This document shows, in pieces, positions 28,997-29,021 of a stretch of 64,000 nucleotides of DNA (positions are counted from its first letter, which is position 1; the number at the start of each line of letters is the position of its first letter). Source of the DNA: Escherichia coli (GTDB lineage: Bacteria; Pseudomonadota; Gammaproteobacteria; Enterobacterales; Enterobacteriaceae). The notes under the pieces are model-generated. The model saw only the letters and a program-made list of their open reading frames with translations. It did no database searches and was not told the DNA's origin. The position numbers and the translations under genes were made by a program. The stretch lies in the NCBI RefSeq assembly GCF_044324875.1, contig NZ_CP172185.1. The stretch is one strand, 5' to 3'.

Positions 28997-29021
28997 AAAT
29001 AAAGTATGTTGTAACTAAAGT
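28997..29021. promoter_or_regulatory. TerB replication terminus site (Tus binding site)
   Basis: Contains GTATGTTGTAACTAAAG Ter core just upstream of tus start. Confidence 0.75.

Follow-up and report, generated by a model that had tools for sequence, protein, structure and literature searches.

The window, a 64,000-nucleotide stretch of an Escherichia coli chromosome, carries an intact 23-bp Ter site at positions 28999-29021, directly upstream of tus. This site is almost certainly the chromosomal TerB of the strain, serving through a single protein, Tus, both as a replication fork barrier and as the operator of tus. That the site is present and intact, where it lies and which way it points, that the gene next to it is tus, and that the surrounding genes are syntenic can all be read directly from the DNA. 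The placement itself is the ordinary textbook one and was already known; the first-pass annotation, which had described a Ter core just before the tus start codon, was correct. The features on which the assignment rests are as follows:

27654-28955, plus strand: rstB, the upstream neighbour of TerB, with its stop codon 14 nt before the -35-like hexamer
28970-28998, plus strand: putative tus promoter, comprising TGGTCA (28970-28975), a 17-nt spacer and the extended -10 element TGcTATAAA (28990-28998)
28999-29021, plus strand: TerB, 23-bp Ter site ATAAAGTATGTTGTAACTAAAGT, identical to MG1655 TerB at 21 of 23 positions
28999-29003, plus strand: variable positions 1-5 of the non-permissive end, ATAAA (AATAA in K-12)
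29004, G on the plus and C on the minus strand: Ter position 6, the G·C(6) base pair of TerB
29006-29018, plus strand: ATGTTGTAACTAA, the conserved core of Ter at positions 8-20, the same as in TerA-E
29032-29961, plus strand: tus, encoding the DNA replication terminus site-binding protein of 309 aa, assigned by PF05472, identity to the K-12 protein and PDB matches
29958-31361, minus strand: fumC, convergent with tus, the 3' ends overlapping by 4 nt as in K-12

In a scan of the whole 64-kb window, the 17-mer GTATGTTGTAACTAAAG gave a single exact match (0 mismatches) at 29004-29020 on the plus strand, inside the 23-bp site, and no second match was found in the window even when up to three mismatches were allowed. 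The chance expectation for an exact match of this length is approximately 7e-6 in 128,000 positions (128000/4^17; 2 x 64,000), and shuffled sequences contained a mean of 0.13 matches with at most three mismatches. The segment from 28990 to 29034, which runs from the extended -10 element to the start codon of tus, reads tgcTATAAAATAAAGTATGTTGTAACTAAAGTggttaatattATG. The register of the site was anchored on G6, so that window coordinate 28998+n is Ter position n; the left end (28999) is the non-permissive face of TerB and the right end the permissive face. The interval proposed in the first-pass annotation, 28997-29021, covers this canonical site and includes two extra bases at its 5' end. Likewise, the distance to tus had been given as about 12 bp; the site does lie just upstream of the gene, and the figure is off by one, immaterially, as 11 nt separate the 17-mer from the ATG, or 10 nt when counted from Ter position 23.

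According to Goodall et al., the conserved positions of Ter are 6 and 8-18, and the variable ones are 1-5, 7 and 19-23 (PMC8347550). The window TerB agrees with the Ter consensus at every conserved position, and a mismatch in the core, which would have spoken against the assignment, did not appear upon alignment to the Ter set. For this comparison, the sequences of TerA-E were read directly from the MG1655 genome, and the TerF-J sequences set beside them are only roughly corroborated by PMC8347550. The sites of MG1655 are the following:

NC_000913.3 1684226-1684248, plus strand: TerB, AATAAGTATGTTGTAACTAAAGT
NC_000913.3 1609157-79, plus strand: TerC, ATATAGGATGTTGTAACTAATAT
NC_000913.3 1341745-67, minus strand: TerA, AATTAGTATGTTGTAACTAAAGT
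NC_000913.3 1279527-49, minus strand: TerD, CATTAGTATGTTGTAACTAAATG
NC_000913.3 1082205-27, minus strand: TerE, TTAAAGTATGTTGTAACTAAGCA

The window site is closest to TerB (21/23), followed by TerA (20/23), TerC and TerE (19/23 each) and TerD (17/23). All of its differences from TerA-E are confined to positions 1-4, 7 and 21-23, and the inner core ATGTTGTAACT (positions 8-18, 29006-29016) is identical to that of all five sites in NC_000913.3. With TerA, TerC, TerD and TerE the window site shares G6 and the complete ATGTTGTAACTAA core, at an overall identity of 17-20 of 23 positions. Unlike the window site, these four lie away from tus and are not promoter operators, and three of them (TerA, TerD and TerE) are carried on the opposite strand, where the fork that they block is the other one.

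The genomic setting points to the same assignment. Of 5426 complete E. coli genomes, 5423 were matched by an 801-nt query spanning the site, in every case at rstB and tus, and the best match was strain 135 (NZ_CP080260.1) at 99.9%. MG1655 and strain 135 share the gene order folM-ydgC-rstA-rstB-tus-fumC-fumA, and the synteny rstAB-Ter-tus-fumCA is found in MG1655 (at 1.68 Mb), in strain 135 and in 5419 of the 5426 complete genomes. The order rstA-rstB-Ter-tus-fumC-fumA of the window is that of MG1655. As published for TerB (PMC8707476), the site is placed between rstB and tus, 10-11 bp before the tus start codon. Over 18813-64000, the window is collinear with strain 135 at approximately 99-99.6% identity. 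Alignment of the two strains also drew attention to rsxC (about 53168-53589), where internal tandem repeats produce staggered, self-overlapping BLAST matches to strain 135 (87-90% identity, offset of approximately 96 nt) and break the main alignment; this pattern suggests that the number of rsxC repeats may differ between strains.

The vicinal Ter sites of other Enterobacterales, for example Ter1 of Edwardsiella tarda, show the same succession of Ter and then tus, which has been described as ancestral (PMC8707476). Those sites are 74-83% identical to TerB (PMC8707476), whereas the allele in the window is 91% identical.

The gene downstream of the site is tus. A program-made list of open reading frames gives a 362-aa frame beginning with GTG at 28873; the real start is the ATG at 29032-29034, and the RefSeq annotation of tus in the near-identical strain 135 has exactly these coordinates. 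Along its entire length the product matches the Pfam family PF05472 (Ter protein; E 2.4e-137). It is identical to MG1655 Tus at 301 of 309 residues (97%) without gaps, and aligns from residue 1-309 to 1-309 with crystallised Tus (PDB 1ECR/2EWJ/2I05/2I06, E 2.5e-202), its identity to 1ECR and 2I06 being 301/309 as well. The eight substitutions relative to K-12 are I23A, H27E, H116R, K119Q, A222T, N225D, H253Y and G270S. Residues E49, I79, F140, H144, G149 and R198 of the cytosine pocket are unchanged relative to K-12; this list reportedly goes back to Mulcair et al. 2006 and to Elshenawy et al. 2015. A full-text literature search for mutants of the pocket (H144A, F140A and others) returned no match, and the names of these residues were not found within the text of PMC4499146. 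The genome encodes a cognate Tus, and its cytosine pocket is predicted to be intact by this list of residues.

The sequence between rstB and TerB has the appearance of a promoter. The -10-like element ends at 28998, one base before Ter position 1, and so abuts the site. In six E. coli alleles the -35-like hexamer and the extended -10 element are both invariant and the intervening spacer is variable at several positions, as one would expect if the promoter is real. A strict scan for the sigma-70 consensus found no plus-strand promoter near TerB, since it demands a T at position 6, which TATAAA does not have; the promoter was assigned by eye and by conservation. On this basis, TGGTCA-17 nt-TGcTATAAA is a plausible extended -10 promoter of tus. 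Since the -10 element ends directly before the Ter site, the predicted transcription start would lie inside TerB, and a start 6-8 nt downstream of the -10 element would fall at Ter positions 5-8. Published accounts describe terB as overlapping the promoter of tus and as mediating autoregulation (PMC8347550 and PMC8707476, citing Roecklein et al. 1991), and the abutting promoter-like element fits this account. As an operator, TerB begins one base after the -10-like element and would cover the predicted start of tus; bound Tus would be expected to occlude RNA polymerase at this allele, leading to low tus expression and negative autoregulation.

The window site differs from K-12 TerB in one respect. 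The two sites share their location between rstB and tus, the tus strand and the 10-nt gap to the ATG, and they are identical at positions 1 and 4-23, G6 and the complete core among them; upstream, the -35-like and extended -10 elements agree as well. The window, however, reads ATAAAG where K-12 reads AATAAG, and the spacer that joins the -35 to the -10 element differs at several bases. The change is due to a single A added to the A-tract that precedes G6 (AAAATAAAG in the window vs AAAATAAG in MG1655), which in the Ter register turns A into T at position 2 and T into A at position 3, and which moves G6 1 bp further from the -10 element than in K-12. Published work in which the native oligonucleotide is the MG1655 sequence confirms that the bases are numbered T(3), A(4), A(5), G(6) (PMC4499146). 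With TAAAG at positions 2-6, the window TerB equals TerE, which belongs to the six high-affinity sites that Tus was seen to bind in ChIP-seq (PMC8707476).

The same extra A is present in strain 135. Across the complete E. coli genomes, 261 of 5426 match a 54-nt query over the site with at least 99% identity, at which threshold K-12-type genomes, with 98.1%, are left out; a further 1362 genomes match at 90-95% identity, and 609 are without any megablast match. As roughly 260 of 5426 complete genomes carry the extra A, it is a natural minority allele, present in approximately 5% of complete E. coli genomes, and not a homopolymer or sequencing error. More generally, the polymorphism of TerB within E. 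coli is confined to variable positions. In O157:H7 and other strains T7 is replaced by G (AAGGATG), accompanied by A2/T changes. These O157:H7-type alleles (…TTAAGGATGTTGTAACTAAAGT) occupy the same locus and are identical to the window site from position 8 into tus, but they have G7, as do TerC and TerG, and are without the extra A, whereas the window has T7 as in K-12. From position 8 as far as the first codons of tus, the six E. coli TerB alleles that were compared do not differ.

Placement in the terminus region, which the first-pass annotation had deduced from the site, fits further features. In MG1655, TerB and TerC are on the plus strand and TerA, TerD and TerE on the minus strand, i.e., the classical opposed arrangement; the window is collinear with MG1655 and has its orientation, and the plus direction of the window is clockwise. 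GC skew on the plus strand is negative in 12 of 15 sub-windows of 8 kb, as expected if the region is normally replicated from right to left, from the permissive side of the site. In addition, the window contains one MatP binding site of the Ter macrodomain:

48595-48607: matS motif GTGACAGTGTCAC, a single copy in the window

Neither dif nor a second Ter was found in the 64-kb window; dif and TerC lie outside it. This setting fits a position within the Ter macrodomain, on the far side of the terminus and approximately 75 kb past TerC. The orientation of TerB fits a fork trap, with the non-permissive face turned toward forks that have already passed the terminus.

For K-12 TerB, autoregulation and fork arrest have been established experimentally (PMC8347550, PMC8707476, PMC4499146), as have the C(6) lock and the polarity of Tus-Ter (PMC4499146, PMC8707476). 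G6 is dispensable for duplex binding and needed for arrest (PMC4499146). By extension from these experiments or from sequence comparison, Tus binding, the lock, fork arrest and repression would be expected at the window allele as well. Tus, encoded just downstream, would bind the 23-bp asymmetric TerB. A fork moving from left to right (clockwise), past dif and TerC, would meet the non-permissive end at 28999; unwinding by the helicase would free C(6) of the minus strand at 29004, which would dock in the cytosine pocket of Tus, yielding a long-lived lock and arrest of the fork. A fork moving from right to left, as is normal for the region, would meet the permissive end and displace Tus. Most clockwise forks in K-12 stop at TerC, and TerB rarely meets a fork (PMC8707476). 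Here TerB is predicted to act as a back-up barrier to clockwise forks.

Three other readings of the site were weighed. A chance sequence match without biological meaning is excluded by the expectation of only about 7e-6 exact 17-mers and by the orthologous position of the site beside tus in thousands of genomes. It is very improbable that TerB is essentially just the tus operator, setting the level of Tus by autorepression without meaningful arrest while TerC catches the clockwise forks. Such a role would agree with a site that lies directly against the -10-like element and over the predicted start, with the location of terB within the tus promoter (PMC8347550) and with the status of TerC as the major termination site (PMC8707476). 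However, significant fork pausing and a strong Tus ChIP signal have been recorded at TerB, an ectopic TerB of non-permissive orientation is lethal, and a Ter beside tus is retained in species with a two-Ter fork trap (PMC8707476). Furthermore, G6, needed for arrest but not for duplex binding (PMC4499146), is kept in six of the six alleles examined.

The remaining reading takes the window allele for a degenerate or pseudo-Ter, like TerF or TerH, in which the 1-nt insertion weakens the lock or shifts the operator, so that Tus is bound without arrest or normal regulation. The allele does depart from K-12 TerB at positions 2 and 3 and has 1 bp more between the -10 element and G6, yet positions 1-5 are variable among functional Ter sites (PMC8347550), the changed positions match TerE (TAAAG), a high-affinity ChIP-seq site (PMC8707476), G6 and positions 8-18 are intact, and the allele occurs in about 261 complete genomes. 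Thus, this reading is scarcely credible, and a TerB that is both fork barrier and operator remains by far the preferred one.

Ter-like candidates elsewhere in the window were rejected. Upon scanning with the looser consensus GNRNGTTGTAAYKA and one mismatch allowed, extra matches appeared at 20892, 49134 and 50931, each of them mismatched, and they were dismissed as chance; four matches were observed vs 1.67 expected, and 11 of 100 shuffles contained at least four. A second GTTGTAAC lies on the minus strand at 45291, within the 23-mer TGCCGGAACGTTGTAACCTGATT (45285-45307, minus strand). This 23-mer has G6, lies inside malX by coordinate mapping to strain 135, and is oriented opposite to TerB, such that it would block the normal fork; with core mismatches at positions 9 and 18-20 it is not a Ter site, and it is most likely a chance match.

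The window also contains a phage-like insertion of approximately 15.6 kb (about 3241-18812) between mdtJ/ydgV and tqsA, which is absent from E. coli strain 135 and has the 9-nt direct repeat TGCTGTTAT on either side (3233-3241 and 18813-18821). The island, used as a query, was covered to at least 80% in only 10 of 5426 genomes. Its closest relative, in strain LH50-c (96.5% identity, 90% coverage), sits at a different site (phoQ/roxA) and is annotated with a tyrosine integrase, an HTH regulator, an Icd-like protein, a RepA-family helicase, SSB and PerC, together with a major capsid protein, an HK97 prohead protease, portal, head-closure and head-tail connector proteins, an HNH endonuclease, and the small and large terminase; no tail genes are annotated. 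In size and gene content, the island resembles a capsid-forming phage-inducible chromosomal island (cf-PICI). At 12662-12875 it has clustered direct repeats rich in CCCCACT(TTT), including an 18-nt unit TTTTGCTCCCCACTTTTT at a spacing of approximately 84 nt and 46-nt copies 168 nt apart. These repeats, which by analogy with LH50-c would lie beside the RepA-helicase gene, look like the iterons of a replication origin. Chi sites (GCTGGTGG) on the minus strand are concentrated in the island as well: 10 of the window's 13 fall inside it, at 4305-17746, all ten on one strand and at a density of approximately 1 per 1.5 kb, far above that of the rest of the window.

The difference between the window allele and K-12 TerB is a natural polymorphism at positions already known as variable. 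An effect of the extra A, whose 1-bp shift of the operator and changes at positions 2-3 could alter the set-point of autoregulation or the kinetics of the lock, is improbable; if it were real, the lineage carrying the allele would have a different Tus dosage or a different leakiness of the fork trap. For the biology of Tus-Ter, the site brings nothing new. As a landmark, TerB fixes the window at the rstAB-tus-fumCA locus and fixes its orientation relative to replication, and this orientation helps to interpret strand biases, such as GC skew and Chi, and the neighbouring mobile element.
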